Shown here piece after piece: positions 39,720-49,560 of a stretch of 64,000 nt of DNA. A program made the translations under genes and the position numbers. The first letter of the stretch is position 1. Every line of letters starts with the position of its first letter. The DNA is from an uncultured Planctomycetota bacterium. Its GTDB lineage: Bacteria; Planctomycetota; PLA2; JAEUHO01. The notes under the pieces are model-generated. The model was given only the letters and a program-made list of their open reading frames with translations, was not told the DNA's origin and did not search any database. The DNA is taken from positions 448,001 through 512,000 of the forward strand of contig CAVVXN010000001.1 in the NCBI GenBank assembly GCA_963752285.1, read 5' to 3'.

Positions 39720-41615
39720 CTAGCGGGGGAGGAACGGGGGAGGGGAAGGGGGGAACCCGAACGCGCTGCGGGGGAGCTCCGGGCGGGCTTCCACCGGAAC
39801 CGGGTGGCGGGGCGCGCGCGTCAGGTGCCGCACGGTGTAGAGGCCCGAGAGGAACCAGGTCGAGAGGAGCACCACCACGAACACGACGAAGGCGATGCCG
39901 ACGCCGCGCCTCCGGCGACGGCGGTAGAACGTCGCGACGAGCACCGCCGTGGCGACCGCGAGGGCCACGAGGCTCAACCGAACGGCGTGCTGGCGTGCCG
40001 GCTCCATGCTCGCCCAGAACGTCCCCAGGTTCTCGGCGACGGGCTGGGGGCCGAGCATCAGGAAGCCCGCGTAGAGCGCCCACAGGAGCGACGCGAGGAG
40101 GAGGACGTGCAGCCAGAACGGCGCGGCGCGCCGCCCCGCCCGCGCCTCGACCCGCACGACCGGCGACGCGACGACGGGCCGGGGCCCCTCGAGCGCGCGG
40201 CGCCCCACCTGGAACGCGCGGCGGGCGCGGTCGGAGGTGAACACGACGAGGCCGTACACGCCGAGCGCCGTTCCGAACGGCGGGAGGAAGAGCAGGAGGA
40301 CGCTCGTCGTGATCTGCCCTTCGCGCGCGCCCTGTGACATGCGCGAGAGCCGGCCGCCCTGACGCAGTAGAAGGATGGCGGCGATGAGCGCGAGCACGCC
40401 CCCGACGCGCGGCCACATCGGGAAGACGCCCTCGAGCACGGAACGTCCGAGGACGCCCACGAACGCGAGGAGGAACAAGACGCCGAACACGCGGTCGAGC
40501 GCGGCGGTCAGGTCCACGTGGCGCAGGATCGAGCGGAGCGCGTCGAGGCTCTCCTCGCCGAGCACGACCGGTTCGGGGGGCGCCGATCGCGCGCGCGGCG
40601 GCGCGGACCGCGACGTGCGGCGGCGGGCCCACGCCTCGTCGATGGCGTCGCCGAACGACGACGCGGAGGCGAAGCGGCGCGCGCGCTCCGGCGCGAGCGC
40701 GCGGTTCACCACGGGATCGAGCACCTCGGGCACGTCGGGACGGACCCGGCTCGGCGGCTCGAAGCGCCCGAGCGGCAGCACGCCCGTGAGCATCTCGTAG
40801 AGCAGCACCCCGAGCGCGTACACGTCGGCGCGCCCGTCGAGGTCCCGTTCGCCGCGGCGCTGCTCGGGCGCCATGTACTCGTACGTGCCGAGGATCACGT
40901 CGGTCCTCGTGAGGAGCGTCGTGGCTTCGGGCCCGCCGTTCGTGGCGAGGCGCGACAGGCCGAAGTCCACCAGGTGGACGCGGCCGTCGTCGTCGAGGAG
41001 CACGTTCTCGGGCTTCAGGTCGCGGTGCACGACGCCTCGCGCGTGCGCGTAGGCGAGCGCGCGGGCGATCTCGCCGGCGATGCGCACGGCCTCGGCGGGC
41101 GGCAGCGGGCCCTGGTGGATGCGGCGGCGCAGGTTCTCGCCGCGCACGTACTCCATCGCGAACCAGAGCCGGCCGTCCTGCTCGCCACGGTCGAGCACCT
41201 CGACGACGTGCGGATGCGAGAGGCTCGCCAGGACGCGCGCCTCCCGGTGGAACCGACGGACGAACGCCGGGTCCGCGGCCAGCTCGCCCGAGAGGATCTT
41301 CACGGCCACCCGACGACGGCCCGGGGCGTCGGTCGCCTCGTACACGCGGCCCATTCCGCCCTCGCCGATCTTGCGGACGAGGCGCCACGGCCCGAGCGAC
41401 GTGCCCACGAGCGGATCGACCTCGGGGGCGCCCGCGCGGGGGTGCCCGTCGTGGACCGTCGCGCGGTGCACGGCGGAGAAGGCGGTCCCGCAGGCGGGAC
41501 ACGCGACGGCCGCGCCGTCCTCGGGGACGGGGACCGGCTCGCCGCACTCCGGACAGTGGGTGGTCCACGTGTCGATGGCGCCCCCCTTCGAGAATGCGAT
41601 GCCCGCCGGGTCCAT
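39720..41615 (-). CDS. Membrane Ser/Thr (Hanks) kinase with an N-terminal zinc ribbon; start ATG 41615 or ATC 41576
   Basis: CPEC..CPAC, IGEGGMG, VAVK, HRDLKPEN, DFG, YMAPEQ; several C-terminal TM helices. Confidence 0.92.
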   Translation of the reverse strand: MDPAGIAFSKGGAIDTWTTHCPECGEPVPVPEDGAAVACPACGTAFSAVHRATVHDGHPRAGAPEVDPLVGTSLGPWRLVRKIGEGGMGRVYEATDAPGRRRVAVKILSGELAADPAFVRRFHREARVLASLSHPHVVEVLDRGEQDGRLWFAMEYVRGENLRRRIHQGPLPPAEAVRIAGEIARALAYAHARGVVHRDLKPENVLLDDDGRVHLVDFGLSRLATNGGPEATTLLTRTDVILGTYEYMAPEQRRGERDLDGRADVYALGVLLYEMLTGVLPLGRFEPPSRVRPDVPEVLDPVVNRALAPERARRFASASSFGDAIDEAWARRRTSRSAPPRARSAPPEPVVLGEESLDALRSILRHVDLTAALDRVFGVLFLLAFVGVLGRSVLEGVFPMWPRVGGVLALIAAILLLRQGGRLSRMSQGAREGQITTSVLLLFLPPFGTALGVYGLVVFTSDRARRAFQVGRRALEGPRPVVASPVVRVEARAGRRAAPFWLHVLLLASLLWALYAGFLMLGPQPVAENLGTFWASMEPARQHAVRLSLVALAVATAVLVATFYRRRRRRGVGIAFVVFVVVLLSTWFLSGLYTVRHLTRAPRHPVPVEARPELPRSAFGFPPSPPPFLPR

Positions 41616-41626
41616 GTCGAGCACGG

Positions 41627-41859: not shown

Positions 41860-43731
<1,872 letters not shown>

Positions 43732-43847: not shown

Positions 43848-44243
43848 ATGACCTCGTCAGGCCGCCGTCTCTCGCAGCGAAACCGCCTCGAGCGTCCCGT
43901 CGAGGCCACGCTCGGCCTTTGCACCGAGGGCCGCGTCTTCGGCTGGATCGTGGACGAGCAGGACGACGGCATCGGGATGGTCTTCGGCGGCGCGGACGTC
44001 TCCCGGATGGTCGCGCACCGCGACTGCTGCCTCCGGGCCGAGATCGACCTCTGGCTCGTGGACGACCCGACGCTCGACCCCACCCGGCCGATCCCGATGC
44101 GGCTCGCGCACGTGACGCCCTCGGACGACGAGAAGACCTGCCGGGCGGGTCTCGCATTCGACGTCGGCCGCATGCAGCCGCAGGACATCGTCCACCTGCT
44201 GGGCATCTGGCGCCGCCTCGTTCCGGCCACCGAGCGCGCCTGA
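43848..44243 (+). CDS. PilZ-like small protein (degenerate c-di-GMP motifs)
   Basis: RRLSQR, IVDEQDDGIG, RAGLAF. Confidence 0.5.
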   Translation: MTSSGRRLSQRNRLERPVEATLGLCTEGRVFGWIVDEQDDGIGMVFGGADVSRMVAHRDCCLRAEIDLWLVDDPTLDPTRPIPMRLAHVTPSDDEKTCRAGLAFDVGRMQPQDIVHLLGIWRRLVPATERA

Positions 44244-44271
44244 GTCCCGCGCGAAGCGGGCGGGCCTCCGG

Positions 44272-44631
44272 TTACGTCGGGACGGGCGTCCAGCCCTCCG
44301 ATACGAGGCGTCCGAGGACCTCCGGGTCCTCCCGGCGCGCGCCCGCGCGGAGCGCCCCTTTGTCGAATCCCCGCTGGTCCAGGCAGCGGCCCGCGCAGTA
44401 GATCCCTCCGCCCCGCTCCGCGATCCGGTCGAGGTGCTCCCACGGCGTCCCGGGCCCGGGCTCGCGGAGGGTCTCCGCCACGCCGCGCACGCCGAGGCGC
44501 ACGCCCTCCGAGTGGAGCCAGAGCGCGACCTCGTGTCCCGCGTCCGCGGCGCGCGCCGCCGCGTGGAGCGCCGACGCCGCGCGGTCCGGGTCGTCGGTCG
44601 AATGGGCGAGGACGTAGAGGAGCCGGCTCAC
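44272..44631 (-). CDS. DsrE/DsrF family protein
   Basis: HSTDDPDRA, LWLHSEGVRL, IYCAGRCL..RG. Confidence 0.8.
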   Translation of the reverse strand: MSRLLYVLAHSTDDPDRAASALHAAARAADAGHEVALWLHSEGVRLGVRGVAETLREPGPGTPWEHLDRIAERGGGIYCAGRCLDQRGFDKGALRAGARREDPEVLGRLVSEGWTPVPT

Positions 44632-44689
44632 GCGGGGCGGAGGATACCCGTCGGGCTGCCCGGCGGGAATCGGGGAAGCAGCCCCCATA

Positions 44690-44728
44690 CGAAGACGGCG
44701 ACCCGCCCCGTAGAGGAGCGGGTCGCCG
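44690..44728 (-). terminator. Intrinsic terminator candidate after the putative selenoprotein gene
   Basis: CGGCGACCCGC / GCGGGTCGCCG 11-bp stem (44696-44706 with 44718-44728), followed by TCTTCGTAT on the minus strand. Confidence 0.6.
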
Positions 44729-44779
44729 CAGGTATCGAGACTTCGAAGAGGAGCCCGGGTGCGTCCCGGGCGTCGCGGA

Positions 44780-45520
44780 TCAGGCGGCCTCGACCTCCAT
44801 CTGGAAGAGGTCCTTCTGCTCGCCTTCGGCCTTCTTCTGGCGCGCGTCGAGGTCTTCCTTCTCCTTGGCGATCTTCTTCGCCTCGGAGTCGTTCACCCCA
44901 CGCTGCTCCTTGTCCGAGAGGATCTGGCGCTCCTTCGCGATCTTGTCGAACTCGTTCAGCACCTTCCGCAGCGCGCCCACGTTGCGGTCGAGGTTGCCCT
45001 TGTACGACTTCTTCGCGCACTTCTGCATCGCCGACCAGATCTTCGATCCGCTGACCTTCTTGCCGTCGATGACCTCGACGACGTCGTAGTCCACGTCGAT
45101 GAAGACCATGCGCGGCGCGTCGTCACCGGTGTCGGCGAGGAGCTTGTCCTTCGCGGCCAGCTCGGGCGACACCTTGACGCAGCGGAAGAACTTCGAGCCG
45201 ATCCGGACCTTGTCCGGGTCCAGCGCGATCTTGTCGATCTTCGCCATCGCGTCCGCGTCGCCGTCCGCAACGACGTACACCCACATCGGGCGATCGAGCC
45301 GCTCCTTCGCCTCGGGACGGGCCGCGACGGGCGTCGCGGTCGAGTCGTCCGACGGCGTGACCTCGGCGTTGTTCGGTGCGATGTGCTGAGCGCTCTCCCA
45401 CTGGATCGTGAGGACGGCCATACTGGCCGCCGAACGACCTCAGCACCCTCCGATCGCGGTCTGCTGGACGCCCAGCAGCGCCACGGCGGACACCGCCGCC
45501 AGCATGAAGACCTTGCGCAT
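44780..45520 (-). CDS. Probable secreted selenoprotein (Cys26-Sec27) with a thioredoxin-like domain and C-terminal coiled coil; in-frame UGA at 45442-45440
   Basis: AGGAG SD + ATG 45520, signal peptide, GGC*GRSAASMAVLT continuing in frame into ORF 44780..45421; hairpin right after the UGA. Confidence 0.7.
45409..45442 (-). promoter_or_regulatory. Bacterial SECIS-like hairpin
   Basis: UGAGG-ucguuc-GGCGGCCA-gua-UGGCCGUC-CUCA; upper stem with a G in the apical loop, and UGAGG can pair with CCUCA. Confidence 0.6.
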
Positions 45521-45689
45521 CCGTCGCTCCTCTCTTCCTCGACGAAACCTGCCCGGGGGCGGACACCTGGACCGACCCGGGTCTTCCATGAGCATAGCCG
45601 ATCCGACCCCCGGATGCGAACCGGCGACACCGATCAAAACGACGTGCACGGCCGCCGTGTTTCACCCCAGGGCCCCGATCTCGTCGATT

Positions 45690-45970
45690 CTAGGGTCGAA
45701 AGACCCGGCTCGACGCCCCGCTCGGGGGTGGCGGGAAAGGGGACGGCCGGGCGGGCAGCGGGAGGGTGAGAGGGAGGAGGCAGGGACACCACGTCCTGCC
45801 GGCATCCGCCCGACCGTCCAAGGAGGTCGAGGGGACCGAGCCCGGGGCGCGGGGGGCGCGACAGGGAGGGAGGGGAGGGAGGGAGGAGAGACGCCGCGCC
45901 TCTCTCACCACGACACCCGGGACTCGGCTCCTCGGAAATCGAAAAGATCCCGCGGGCACGGGCCCGCTCG
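45690..45970 (-). ncRNA. Candidate sigma54-dependent sRNA or long leader with hairpin + CCUCC-rich modules
   Basis: No credible ORF; hairpins GAGAGGCG/CGTCTCTC and GGCAGGAC/GTCCCTGCC, each followed by CU-rich tracts; GGGTC/GACCC hairpin at 45693-45706. Confidence 0.35.
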
Positions 45971-45980
45971 GTGAGGACCT

Positions 45981-45997
45981 CGCACTCGGCGTGCCAA
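45981..45997 (-). promoter_or_regulatory. sigma54 (-24/-12) promoter candidate
   Basis: TTGGCACGCCGAGTGCG: GG-N10-GC with TGGCAC. Confidence 0.6.
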
Positions 45998-46241
45998 AGA
46001 ACGTGGACCGCGCGGGGCCCATTTTCCGGAGGGAGCCGCGGCGGGCGTCCGCGCGGTTCTCCGTCCCGACACGCCGATGTGGCCGGCCCCGCACGGTGTA
46101 CCGGGAAGGCGCGCTCCCGGAACACCTCGGCGCCGGGGGCGTCGACCCTCGAGGGCTGCGCCGTCGGATGCCGGCGGCCCGTGCCGGTCGCGCGTCGGAC
46201 GGCCGGCAATTCCCGCAGGTCGAGGGAGTAGGATCGGGGCG

Positions 46242-46463
46242 ATGACGTGAACGCCGCTCTCCGGGCGGAAGTTGTTCGCCCTCCTCCTCCTGACCGCCGT
46301 CGGCGCGGCCGTCTACGGCGTTCCCGGCGCGCTGGCGGGCTACGTGGCCGGGTCCCTCCTCGGCGCGTTCCTCCCGAGCCGCGAGGCCGGCGCTTGCGAC
46401 GTCGGCGCGCGTCCGGCGCCGCGAGCCCTCCTCGGGCCGCCCCCCCGTTCCGACGAGGGCTGA
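46242..46463 (+). CDS. Small two-TM membrane protein; possibly begins M-T-Sec (UGA at 46248), otherwise TTG start at 46272
   Basis: GC3-rich hydrophobic ORF; ATG ACG TGA in frame with AGGA upstream; C-terminal GACD. Confidence 0.45.
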
Positions 46464-46604
46464 GCGCTCCGCTCCGTTGGCTCGCCGGTCCGCGCGGGGG
46501 ACGGCGACCGGGCCGTTCGGCCCGATCGCCAACTCGTACAATCCGCTCGCTCCGCGCGGCGCCGTGCCCGGTCGCACGTTCGGCCGCACGCGGGGGGAGG
46601 CTCC

Positions 46605-48248
46605 ATGCGGGTTCGTCTCGCCCCGTTCGCCGCCGCCGTCCTCTCGCTCGGCCTCGCGATCGGCGCACGGGGGCCGCTCGCTCGGGGCGAGGGCGAGACG
46701 GGCGCGCGCGCCGGGTCGGACGCGGAGTCGGCCCGGATCCTCCACCTGCTCCGGCGCGCGACGTTCGGCCCCCGGACCGAGGACGTGGAGGAGGTGCGCC
46801 GCCTCGGCCGCGAGGCCTGGGTGGACCGTCAGCTCCGTCCGGAGGAGATCCCGGACCGTGAGGTGGACGAGCGCCTCGGGGGCTACGAGTCGCTCGGGCT
46901 CTCGACCTCCGAGTACCTCGCGCGGCTCGACGCCGGCCCCGCGCCGCCCCGCGTCCCCGGGCGGGGCGAGAACCCCGACGAGGTGGCGCGCCGCCGCGTG
47001 CGCGACGTGCAACGCCTGCGGAGCCTCGGCGCGAAAGAGGTGCCCGAGAGCGTCCTGCTCCGCGCCGTCTACTCGCGACGCCAGCTCCAGCAGGTGATGT
47101 GCGAGTTCTGGCGGAACCACTTCAACGTGGACGTCAACAAGGACGACGTGCGGTACTACGTCGCCGACTGGGAGCGCGAGGTGCTCCAGAAGCGGGTGTT
47201 CGGGAGCTTCGAGGACCTGCTGCTCGCGACGGCCAGGCACCCCGCGATGCTCTTCTACCTCGACAACCACGTCTCCCAGGCGCCGCGCGCCCGGGGCGAG
47301 AAGGTGCTCCAGGGACACGAGAAGCAGGACCGGACCGACGGCCTGAACGAGAACTACGCCCGGGAGCTGATGGAGCTCCACACCGTCGGCGTGGACAACG
47401 GCTACACCCAGGACGACGTGATCCAGCTCGCTCTCGTCCTGACGGGCTGGTCGATCGGGGGCCAGGGTGGAGACCGCGGCGCGTTCACGTTCCGCGCGGG
47501 CTACCACGCGGGGGGCCGGAAGCGCGTGATGGGGAAGACCGTCAAGGACGGCGGCGTCGAGGAGGGCGAGGAGGTCCTCCGCTACCTCGCCCACCATCCG
47601 AACACGCGGCGTTTCGTCTGCACGAAGCTCGTGCGCTACCTCGTCGCCGACGACCCGCCGCCCGCGATCGTCGACGCCGCGGTCGCGGCCTGGAAGAAGA
47701 CGAAGGGCGACCTCGGCGCCGTGGTGCGCGCGATCCTCCTCCATCCCGACTTCGACGCGCCCGGGAACGTCCTCGCGAAGGCCCGCACGCCGTTCGAGAT
47801 GGTGGCGGCGACGCTCCGCGCGACGCGCGCGGACGTGAAGGACCCCGGCGCCCTCCTGGCGCGCCTGGCGGACATGGACGAGCCGCTCTACCAGTGCCAG
47901 GACCCCACGGGCTACAGCGACCGCGCGGCGGACTGGACCGACGCCGGCGCCCTCGCCGTTCGCTGGACGTACGCGCGGGACCTCGTGGACGGGAGGATCC
48001 CCGGCGTCTCGATCGAGGACAGCCCGATCTTCGCCCTCGTCCGGGACGGGCCGCCCGCGTGGGAGGACGCGCTCGTCGGCGCCCTCTTCGCCGGCCAGAC
48101 GCCGTCGCTCGCGACGCTCGCGCCGATCCGGCGCCGGCTCGTCCGCCTGGAGCCGGGATGGCGGACGCTCGCGCCCGACGCGCGGGTCCAGGCGTTCCGA
48201 GACGTGGTGACGCTGATGCTCGGGTCGACCGACTTCCAGCGGCAGTGA
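46605..48248 (+). CDS. DUF1800 family protein
   Basis: HLLRRATFGP, FWRNHFNV, HPAMLFYLDN, NENYARELMELHTVG, YTQDDV. Confidence 0.92.
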   Translation: MRVRLAPFAAAVLSLGLAIGARGPLARGEGETGARAGSDAESARILHLLRRATFGPRTEDVEEVRRLGREAWVDRQLRPEEIPDREVDERLGGYESLGLSTSEYLARLDAGPAPPRVPGRGENPDEVARRRVRDVQRLRSLGAKEVPESVLLRAVYSRRQLQQVMCEFWRNHFNVDVNKDDVRYYVADWEREVLQKRVFGSFEDLLLATARHPAMLFYLDNHVSQAPRARGEKVLQGHEKQDRTDGLNENYARELMELHTVGVDNGYTQDDVIQLALVLTGWSIGGQGGDRGAFTFRAGYHAGGRKRVMGKTVKDGGVEEGEEVLRYLAHHPNTRRFVCTKLVRYLVADDPPPAIVDAAVAAWKKTKGDLGAVVRAILLHPDFDAPGNVLAKARTPFEMVAATLRATRADVKDPGALLARLADMDEPLYQCQDPTGYSDRAADWTDAGALAVRWTYARDLVDGRIPGVSIEDSPIFALVRDGPPAWEDALVGALFAGQTPSLATLAPIRRRLVRLEPGWRTLAPDARVQAFRDVVTLMLGSTDFQRQ

Positions 48249-48267
48249 GCAGACCCAAGGGAGCCCC

Positions 48268-49560
48268 ATGGCCATTTCTCGACGCGATCTCCTCCGGGCG
48301 GGCGCCCTCGGCGCGGCCGCCGCGGGCCTCGGCGGCCCCCTCGCACGACGCGTGATGGCTGCGCCGGATCCCGAGGTCTCCGCGCGGCGCGTTCTCGTGG
48401 CGGTGTTCCTCCGCGGCGGGCAGGACGGCCTGAACGTGCTCGTCCCGTACGCGGACCCCCGCTATCCGGAGCTCCGTCCCAACATCCACCTCCCGCCGCC
48501 CGGCGAGGACGGCGGGGTCCTCGACCTCGACGGCACGTTCGGGCTCCATCCCGCCTTGACGGGGCTGAAGCGGCTCTACGACGAGAAGCTCCTCGCGCCC
48601 ATCGTCTGCGTGGGCTCGCCCCATCCCACCCGTTCGCACTTCGACGCGCAGGACTTCATGGAGTACGGCGCGCCCGGCGACCGGCTGGTGAAGACGGGCT
48701 GGCTCAACCGCTATCTCGAGGCGACCGCGCCCGCGGCCGGCCCCGACGCGTCGCTCCGGGGCGTCGCGATGCAGCGCCGCCTGCCCCGGTCGCTCCGCGG
48801 AGCCTATCCGGCGCTCGCCGTGCCGGCGTCCCTCGGCCTCGGCTCGCGACGGCCGCGCGACGGCGACGGGGACGACGTCCTCGACCTCTTCGACCCGCTC
48901 TACGGTCAGCCCGACGCGGCGGCGATGGGCGGAACGCGTCCGGACGAGGACCGCCTGGAGGCCGCCGGCCGCACCACGATCGAGACCTTGAAGCGGCTCG
49001 AGGACGTCCTCGCGTCCACCGGCGGGCGGTCCGCCGCGAGGTGGCCGTCCGACGCGGGCCCGCTCGGAGAGCCGCTCCGCCGGACCGCCCGCCTGCTCCA
49101 GGCCGGGCAGGGCACCGAGGTCGTCGCCGTGGACTGGAACGGATGGGACCACCACATCGGCGAAGGCGGGCCCGGCGAGGAGGGGCAGCTCCCCCGGATG
49201 CTCGGGCAGCTCGACCGCGCGATCACCGCCTTCTTCGAGGAGCTCCGTCCGATGCGCGCCACGGTCACGATGCTCCTCATGACGGAGTTCGGACGCACGA
49301 ACGCCGAGAACGGGAACCGCGGCACGGACCACGGCCACGCCAGCCTGATGCTCGCCATCGGCGGGCGCGTGAAGGGCGGGAAGGTCCACGGCGAGTGGAC
49401 GACGCTCGCGCCGGGCAAGACCTACGAGAACCGCGATCTCGTGGTCACGACCGACTTCCGCACGGTGTTTTGCGAGACGCTGACCGACTTCCTGCGCCTG
49501 CCGGCCGACCGCGAGGTCTTCCCGGGGTTCACCGGCGCGCGGAAGCTCGGTCTGTTCTGA
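48268..49560 (+). CDS. DUF1501 family protein with Tat signal
   Basis: SRRDLL, VFLRGGQDGLN, FGLHP, RSHF, GWDHH, TEFGRT..NGNRGTDHG. Confidence 0.92.
   Translation: MAISRRDLLRAGALGAAAAGLGGPLARRVMAAPDPEVSARRVLVAVFLRGGQDGLNVLVPYADPRYPELRPNIHLPPPGEDGGVLDLDGTFGLHPALTGLKRLYDEKLLAPIVCVGSPHPTRSHFDAQDFMEYGAPGDRLVKTGWLNRYLEATAPAAGPDASLRGVAMQRRLPRSLRGAYPALAVPASLGLGSRRPRDGDGDDVLDLFDPLYGQPDAAAMGGTRPDEDRLEAAGRTTIETLKRLEDVLASTGGRSAARWPSDAGPLGEPLRRTARLLQAGQGTEVVAVDWNGWDHHIGEGGPGEEGQLPRMLGQLDRAITAFFEELRPMRATVTMLLMTEFGRTNAENGNRGTDHGHASLMLAIGGRVKGGKVHGEWTTLAPGKTYENRDLVVTTDFRTVFCETLTDFLRLPADREVFPGFTGARKLGLF

Follow-up and report, generated by a model that had tools for sequence, protein, structure and literature searches.

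Introduction

In the Escherichia coli fdhF gene, the selenocysteine insertion sequence (SECIS) is a hairpin that lies within the open reading frame (ORF), 3' of the selenocysteine (Sec) codon UGA, and presents a G-U in its loop at a set distance from this UGA. Among the bacterial selenoproteins that adopt a thioredoxin fold, some are exported, and their Sec motif is located at the canonical active-site helix. Other selenoproteins carry Sec directly beside a Cys residue; this pair lies at or near the C-terminus in KCU-star and SaoC and, to judge from the family names, inside unrelated domains in the other families with such a 'CU' motif. A May 2026 inventory of 119 prokaryotic selenoprotein families (Table 1 of PMC13188914) lists UxxC/CxxU (or UGC) motifs for thioredoxin-fold bacterial selenoproteins as well as an adjacent Cys-Sec motif for KCU-star/DUF466, SaoC Cys-Cys-COOH, MbdU, SaoL, and HgcA. 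Finally, animal thioredoxin reductase (TrxR1), as described in PMC2268967, has a C-terminal Gly-Cys-Sec-Gly arm that forms a selenenylsulfide, is reduced to the selenolthiol, and then reduces substrates. Here, we report on a candidate selenoprotein gene at positions 44780..45520 of a 64,000-nucleotide stretch of DNA from an uncultured Planctomycetota bacterium (assembly GCA_963752285.1, contig CAVVXN010000001.1, positions 448,001 to 512,000; this whole stretch is referred to as the window). The gene, which lies on the minus strand, contains an in-frame TGA at codon 27, directly after a Cys codon, and is predicted to encode an exported protein that carries a Cys-Sec pair at its mature N-terminus, ahead of a thioredoxin-like domain.

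Conservation of the in-frame TGA

The reading frame starts with an ATG at 45520-45518, and a Shine-Dalgarno-like GGAG is located 6 nt 5' of this codon (45527..45530 on the minus strand, as are all features of the gene given below). From this ATG, the frame consists of MRKVFMLAAVSAVALLGVQQTAIGGC, the codon TGC for Cys26 (45443..45445), which is the proposed partner of Sec27, and the in-frame TGA of Sec27 (45440..45442), followed by GRSAAS-MAVLTIQW; past the TGA, it continues as GRSAASMAVLTIQW... into a 213-aa ORF (44780-45421) and ends at a terminal TGA (44782-44780). A first-pass annotation of the window had claimed a Shine-Dalgarno sequence and an ATG at 45520 in frame, across the TGA, with the 213-aa ORF, and all of these elements are present; translation with TGA as U likewise reproduced the 246 residues that had been given for the read-through protein. 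The list of ORFs splits the gene in two, i.e., into a 69-aa ORF that ends at Cys26 and the 213-aa ORF, and the ATG of the latter (45421-45419) overlaps the loop and the 3' arm of a hairpin (see below), in agreement with the annotation, which had placed this second ATG inside the hairpin.

The TGA is conserved among relatives of the window gene. When the read-through protein was used as query for 41 related genomes (figures refer to the 99 matches listed), 37 of these genomes contained a match, and an in-frame TGA was found in 61 of the 99 matches, two of which hold two TGAs; 62 matches start no later than query residue 22, and hence span codon 27, and of these only G034:C12 is without a TGA. 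The TGA aligns beside a Cys in all of 20 orthologues (35-55% identity), with the order Cys-Sec-Gly in 19 of them and a swapped order, Gly-Sec-Cys, in L040; alignment columns 26 and 27 are both invariant when Sec is written as C. Conservation of the protein crosses the TGA, as G28, S30, A32, and W41 are also invariant in these orthologues, and both the signal-peptide-like N-terminus and the GRS.AS peptide between the TGA and Met34 are conserved. Met34 itself is not kept as a start codon (it is replaced by AAG in L029, by TCG in L038 and L039, and by CTG in many paralogues), and the downstream part is therefore not generally translatable alone.

When 1.84 billion representative proteins were searched with a profile, 498 relatives were identified at E <= 0.001. 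Approximately 32 of the best 150 profile matches begin exactly at the Met behind Sec, and these are gene-caller truncations. Among the matches listed, eight span the N-terminus without a stop codon; the counterpart of the Cys-Sec pair is Cys-Cys in the full-length proteins P0020, P0031, and P0058, CxxC in P0069, which is likewise full-length, and CGC in P0075, and L082 is another Cys-only form. Homologues at codon 27 show either TGA or Cys, rather than the Trp, Arg, or Gly that the first-pass annotation had associated with a nonsense mutation or sequencing error; one subgroup has Asp at this position along with the neighbouring Cys only.

The window genome (4.64 Mb in 5 contigs, 89% complete) encodes a complete set of the selenocysteine machinery components that the annotation had suggested looking for. 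A tRNA-Sec was detected with 70 bits (cut-off 47) and was classified by ARAGORN as type SeC with anticodon TCA; SelB (317 bits), SelA (507 bits), and SelD (356 bits) were all above the curated cut-offs. The selA gene adjoins selD (G000:C1:734626-736999; L017 and L018), and selD holds an in-frame TGA of its own (GAGG-U-AAK). As TGA is also the terminal stop of the window gene, the genetic code is not reassigned in this organism. Overall, the comparative sequence data argue strongly that the organism's own SelA, SelB, SelD, and tRNA-Sec insert selenocysteine at UGA codon 27, and we consider this reading very probable.

A hairpin downstream of the TGA

A SECIS-like hairpin is located at 45413..45431, with a stem formed by GGCGGCCA (45431-45424) and UGGCCGUC (45420-45413) and a GUA loop (45423-45421). 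The stem has 8 bp, including one G-U pair, the loop begins 19 nt after the U of the UGA, and the hairpin encodes part of the conserved peptide AASMAV. An 8-bp stem with a G-containing apical loop was hence found where the first-pass annotation had placed it, i.e., after the UGA, and it is contained in the minimum-energy fold of a 71-nt stretch (-37.7 kcal/mol, z -4.38, with none of 200 shuffles as good). By contrast, the additional pairing of UGAGG with CCUCA that had been proposed did not stand: it is possible on paper and unused in the minimum-energy fold, and CCUCA is present in only 6 of the 20 orthologues, in 3 of which it is part of a different hairpin.

Hairpins of this type are common to the family, and the combination of TGA and hairpin, which is seen again in dozens of related genes, exceeds what chance would give. 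In a pattern scan for a contiguous stem with a loop that starts 16-33 nt after the TGA and in which G occupies one of the first two positions, 41 of 44 family TGAs had a stem of 6 bp or more, as compared to 302 of 1975 other TGAs (15.3%) in the same loci; with a stem of 7 bp or more, the corresponding figures were 26 of 44 and 6.3%. The family TGAs are followed by 27 distinct stem sequences, with loops such as GUA, GUC, GGUC, GGU, and similar, and the peptide encoded by the stem varies by subfamily (AASMAV, ATVRVL, SASLAA, or Gly/Ala runs). As the stems encode different peptides in different subfamilies, the hairpin appears to be kept at the RNA level. In the 20 orthologues, aligned with codons as anchors, 82.5% of cells pair, a value that drops to 25-41% on shifting the partner by 1-3 columns; 4 of the 8 hairpin pairs vary on both sides, and the covariation score is 0.207, versus 0.068 in shuffles, with 0 of 500 shuffles reaching 0.207; these pairing and covariation figures are flattered, as the tested structure was derived from one of the related sequences. 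Pairs were counted on this named structure because three sequences have a shifted hairpin and one sequence is displaced by a codon.

Synonymous codon usage represents an independent signal for the hairpin. AGT, the Ser codon that gives the loop its G-U, accounts for 19 of the 46 Ser codons located up to 12 codons past the TGA, and for 3 of the 267 in the remainder of the same 20 genes, in which the G+C content at third codon positions (GC3) is 0.92. The SECIS-like hairpin proposed in the annotation is, in summary, conserved and carries both covariation and a synonymous-codon signature. Hairpins with 3-nt loops and a forced AGT may represent a compact SECIS variant, recognition of which could improve selenoprotein finders for GC-rich genomes.

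Signal peptide and predicted fold

Residues 1-25 (45446..45520) form a putative signal peptide, consisting of MRK, a hydrophobic core, and QQTAIGG, and a signal-peptide-like N-terminus was found in 20 of 20 orthologues. Signal peptidase I likely cleaves 1-3 residues before the selenium, with predicted sites AIG|GCU in the window protein and AEA|GUC in paralogues. An AlphaFold2 model built from a 20-row alignment had a mean predicted local distance difference test (pLDDT) score of 81.9 and a predicted template modelling (pTM) score of 0.75; the signal peptide is disordered in this model (pLDDT <50). The conserved segment after Sec, GRSAASMAVLTIQW... (residues 28-50; 45371..45439), is modelled as a helix (31-37) plus the first strand of the thioredoxin fold, with mean pLDDT values of 91 for residues 31-40 and 83 for residues 41-50. 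It is followed by a low-complexity linker (residues 52-69; 45314..45367; pLDDT <50), which is variable in length and gapped in the alignment, by a compact alpha/beta, thioredoxin-like core (residues ~77-173; 45002..45292), and by a C-terminal helical hairpin (helices 177-206 and 211-238; 44807..44992), which is Lys/Glu-rich, is modelled with pLDDT >=86, and carries a conserved EFDKI..ER motif.

According to this model, the body behind the Cys-Sec motif is a thioredoxin fold that is extended by a helical hairpin. In a comparison with representative structures by VIA-align, thioredoxin 4ruv_A was matched with Z 11.8 and a root mean square deviation (rmsd) of 2.4 over 99 residues, and many other thioredoxins were matched with Z 9-11; the alignments to thioredoxins begin at model residues 33-41. 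Neither CxxC nor UxxC is present at the canonical site, where residues 84-89 are ADGDAD, and the 20 orthologues have no Cys column there. The fold and the absence of an active-site Cys are both as the first-pass annotation had claimed for a thioredoxin-like domain without CxxC. The sole Cys of the core, C114, is part of a strand, and 5 of the 20 orthologues have Ala or Met instead. Because the canonical site is Cys-less and C114 is variable, the Cys-Sec tip contains the only conserved redox-capable residues of the protein.

Paralogues and distribution of the family

The family was found in 54 of 301 genomes sampled from the phylum, and full-length matches with one TGA extend to 14 genomes outside the order of the window organism, representing 9 further taxonomic families. 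Named records with orthologues all come from metagenome-assembled Planctomycetota/Planctomycetia genomes, and a locus search with the 8 closer alignment rows yielded 8 loci in planctomycete metagenome-assembled genomes (MAGs), all of which were already covered. The 41 related genomes contain one to five matches per genome, often in tandem; open frames of 750-1600 aa were also observed among these matches.

The arrangement of Cys and Sec differs among paralogues, the tips of which follow a signal-peptide end of the A-x-A-G type. Sec-Cys paralogues have the form ...AEAG-U-C-(G/N)GRS.AS, and a second copy in the window genome (L041; G000:C3:484582-485259) reads EAG-U-C-GGRSAAS, with an 8-bp hairpin and a GUC loop. 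Two Sec-Sec paralogues were observed, L060 (G004:C51; G-U-U-GRS) and L047 (G026:C7; YG-U-U-RGS), with a hairpin after each; their double-TGA tips are possibly diselenides. Tips of the form Sec-x3-5-Cys (e.g., AG-U-GGG-R-C-GAS) occur in more distant taxonomic families. In a maximum-likelihood tree, which was used for topology only and for which the tip motifs were read by eye, the Sec-Cys paralogues of the taxonomic family to which the window organism belongs form one well-supported clade (100/99) nested among Cys-Sec forms, and Cys-only forms arise within Sec-bearing groups at three or more points of the tree. Finally, HEAT-repeat proteins (P0140) carry the module of thioredoxin-like domain and helices at their N-terminus, and the 1598-aa P0089 contains it internally, in addition to a kinase domain, repeats of the glucodextranase-B-like type, and an FGE-sulfatase domain.

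Proposed function and alternative explanations

The best overall explanation, for and against which we see about equal weight, is that the window gene encodes an exported Cys-Sec selenoprotein, that it belongs to one paralogous planctomycete family, and that the tip of this protein functions in redox reactions. UGA decoding would be directed by the hairpin 19 nt downstream, the apical loop of which presents a G-U, and the signal peptide would carry the protein across the cytoplasmic membrane, giving a mature start of G-C-U-G. The Cys-Sec pair would then be located on a short arm ahead of the CxxC-less thioredoxin-fold domain, which is followed by the long helical hairpin; the adjacent Cys and Sec could alternate between a cyclic selenenylsulfide and the selenolthiol form, and the tip would deliver reducing equivalents to, or accept them from, substrates outside the cytoplasm, with the thioredoxin-like body and the helices possibly representing a scaffold or docking surface. 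As a mechanism, the redox-active selenolthiol tip is proposed by analogy with the G-C-U-G arm of animal thioredoxin reductase, and we rate its chances as just short of even. As CU, UC, UU, and CC tips are interchangeable in the family, a dichalcogenide couple would fit better than a single placed nucleophile.

A number of observations weigh against this explanation or against some of its parts. With regard to the redox mechanism, the Sec-less relatives P0041, P0076, and L044 have a single Cys at the tip, and a two-chalcogen couple fails to account for these proteins. With regard to the fold, a Foldseek search found no PDB match at E <= 0.001, and its best match, DsbH (E 1.3e-3), agrees weakly with the thioredoxin fold. 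With regard to the hairpin, z-scores for the 54 nt after the TGA, relative to GC-rich dinucleotide shuffles, are weak (mean -0.72, with 9 of 44 below -2); minimum-free-energy z-scores discriminate poorly here because the sequence has 92% GC3, and the pattern scan against other TGAs was used instead. RNAalifold, when applied to the 20 orthologues, yielded a structure without this hairpin and with a different 4-bp helix instead. The hairpin of the window genome's own SelD gene (a 7-bp stem with an 8-nt loop, as compared to the 3-nt loop of the family) falls outside of the scan pattern and, because its 8-nt loop misses this pattern, is unusable as an internal positive control. With regard to the machinery, selA was matched in 28 of the 29 genomes with TGA forms in the 301-genome sample, a co-occurrence that represents a weak test because SelA is common in the phylum (above the cut-off in 219 of the 301 genomes); the TGA-bearing genome without a selA match is G005 (92% complete, 340 contigs).

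A broader, joint reading, which we put forward tentatively and with more doubt than conviction, is that the window protein represents an uncatalogued class of exported planctomycete selenoproteins with a two-chalcogen, N-terminal catalytic tip in place of a catalytic centre in the body of the fold. The tip would be the extracytoplasmic equivalent of the arm of thioredoxin reductase, with true diselenides among its versions, and the class would have multiplied to two to five paralogues per genome and have become fused to HEAT-repeat and kinase/FGE-sulfatase proteins. If this reading is true, the class would be a sign that the planctomycete periplasm contains a redox or chalcogen relay based on selenium.

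Among the alternative explanations, an unlikely one is that the tip binds a soft metal or metalloid (e.g., Hg, Cu, As, or Cd) and that the protein acts as an exported chaperone, scavenger, or sensor. Catalogued bacterial selenoproteins with an adjacent Cys-Sec motif frequently have names that refer to the handling of metals or organometals, as for the MerB-like SaoL, HgcA, SaoC, and MbdU, for all of which Table 1 of PMC13188914 gives a 'CU' motif, and both the interchangeable CU, UC, UU, and U-x3-5-C tips, which would suit a bidentate ligand, and the thioredoxin body without CxxC are consistent with such a site; however, metal-resistance or transport genes are absent beside the window gene, none of the NCBIfam models for these CU families matches, and the 20 orthologues show no conserved His, Asp, or Met co-ligands near the tip.

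We consider it improbable that the protein is instead a carrier of sulfane sulfur or selenium, with a persulfide or perselenide tip that participates in a chalcogen relay with a DsrE-like neighbour. The gene directly downstream (44272..44688, minus strand) encodes a DsrE/DsrF-like protein of 138 aa without a signal peptide (Pfam PF02635, E 2.4e-6), and proteins of the DsrE family are sulfur-relay carriers. A homologue of this gene was found by tblastn directly downstream and on the same strand in 8 of the 20 orthologous loci, but it is missing or was not found in the other 12; as the DsrE-like protein lacks a signal peptide, the two proteins would reside in different compartments, and a perfect 10-bp inverted repeat, GGCGACCCGC ... 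GCGGGTCGCC (44697..44727, minus strand), separates the two genes. A functional link with this neighbour is possible but weak.

A similarly low probability is assigned to the possibility that the protein is a lipoprotein, with Cys26 as the lipid-modified first residue and Sec27 alone as a membrane-tethered selenol. A-I-G-G-C would suit a permissive lipobox, which is a PROSITE-type rule, and a small residue precedes the Cys in most C-U orthologues; under the pattern [LVI][ASTVI][GAS]-C, the window gene reads I-G-G-C, but L033 and L034 fail this pattern, with Glu at -1 (G-E-C), and L038 and L039 have Lys at -4. In the U-C, U-U, and U-x-C paralogues, Sec rather than Cys follows the A-x-A-G site and no lipobox is possible, and the polar QQT between the hydrophobic core and the Cys appears more typical of signal peptidase I substrates. 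Finally, it is hardly credible that there is no selenoprotein at all and that the locus represents a nonsense mutation or assembly error, or a leader ORF plus a 213-aa protein that starts at Met34: gene callers and public databases hold the 213-aa form only, and the roughly 32 matches that start at the post-Sec Met agree with them, but the comparative sequence data already contradict this idea, with a TGA at the same codon in all 20 orthologues and in 61 matches across the 41 genomes, a Met34 start that is not conserved behind an in-frame signal peptide and GRS.AS peptide that are, and a TGA as the gene's own terminal stop in a code that is not reassigned.

Genomic neighbourhood

The 10-bp inverted repeat lies between the stop codon of the window gene and the DsrE-like gene and is possibly a transcript end or stabiliser; lacking a T-run, it was passed over in a scan for terminators. 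Further downstream, a Ser/Thr protein kinase (39720-41624, minus strand) and an FHA-GAF-sigma-54 activator with an HTH_8 domain (41860-43731, minus strand) were observed; the combination of an FHA domain with a neighbouring kinase is suggestive of a sigma-54 regulon under phospho-dependent control. Upstream of the window gene, approximately 1.08 kb (45521-46604) contain no convincing ORF or Rfam match, and an Rfam scan of 44000-47000 found nothing. Terminator-like hairpins are present on the minus strand of this region, at 45967-45949 and 46021-46004, and provide hints of an unannotated minus-strand transcript that ends at these hairpins. A DUF1800/DUF1501 pair (46605-49560, plus strand), a pairing that is typical of planctomycetes, is divergent from the window gene.

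Comparison with known systems

The first-pass annotation had suggested that the protein might belong to an uncatalogued family, and the databases and literature compared here are consistent with this suggestion. The read-through protein matched 0 families at E <= 1 in Pfam-A and NCBIfam release 20, and its Cys homologue P0020 matched no family in Pfam at E <= 0.01. None of the entries in the 119-family prokaryotic inventory (May 2026, Table 1 of PMC13188914) fits the window protein, with inventory families that have only cd or PTHR identifiers compared by table description, not by profile, and the families of Haft and Tolstoy 2025 compared through their NCBIfam models only. No description of the family appeared in the full-text literature searched or in passages of PMC12013277, PMC13326102, and PMC4807772, a scope that does not extend to supplementary tables and the survey of groundwater MAGs. 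A database look-up gave 14 matches, each of which covers at most 86% of the query, without the signal peptide and tip, and is annotated as 'hypothetical protein' where named. As the gene is mis-annotated in this manner, exported planctomycete proteomes and selenoproteome counts are probably underestimated. In addition, the occurrence of C-U, U-C, U-U, and C-C tips side by side provides a natural series for asking why selenium is used over sulfur.

With regard to SECIS elements, the family hairpins resemble that of fdhF, in that an in-ORF hairpin lies directly 3' of the UGA and presents an apical G-U; unlike fdhF, they have short (6-10 bp), GC-rich stems and mostly 3-nt loops (GUA, GUC, GGU) that start 18-30 nt after the UGA. 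With regard to the tip itself, the catalogued 'CU' selenoproteins share an adjacent Cys-Sec pair as their selenium motif, and none of the NCBIfam models scanned for these families (NF033934, NF040734, NF045648, NF040728, and NF040863) matches the window protein. In TrxR1, the G-C-U-G tetrapeptide is identical, and the adjacent Cys and Sec lie on a terminal, flexible stretch in both proteins; however, the arm of TrxR1 is C-terminal, whereas that of the window protein is N-terminal on a predicted exported bacterial thioredoxin-fold protein, in which a Pfam scan found no flavoprotein domain. In addition, the SECIS of the window gene is located inside the frame, just after the UGA, and the two proteins have no sequence relationship.

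With regard to the fold, the model shows likeness to the C-terminal (gamma) domain of DsbD (1vrs_D; Z 11.4, rmsd 2.9, 106 residues), to AGR2/ERp19-type proteins (3ph9_B; Z 10.6), and to DsbH (2ju5; Foldseek E 1.3e-3), a group of structural neighbours that, by their entry titles, includes extracytoplasmic redox proteins. Identity to these proteins is 10-17%, with no profile match; the canonical CxxC is absent from the window protein, and its helical hairpin (177-238) and disordered insert (52-69) are extra to the DsbD/DsbH/AGR2-type domains. The thioredoxin-fold bacterial selenoproteins (i.e., thioredoxin, DsbA/DsbG-like, thiol:disulfide interchange, and UGC TlpA-like proteins) share with the window protein the fold, a coding-region SECIS, and the existence of Cys homologues. 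None of their Pfam or NCBIfam models matches the window protein at E <= 1, and, unlike in these proteins, Sec is located approximately 50 residues upstream of the canonical site, at the mature tip. Taken together, gene and model indicate that the window protein would be a thioredoxin-fold bacterial selenoprotein with an in-ORF SECIS, the new feature of which is that the selenium appears to have shifted to a vicinal pair of residues at the start of the mature protein.

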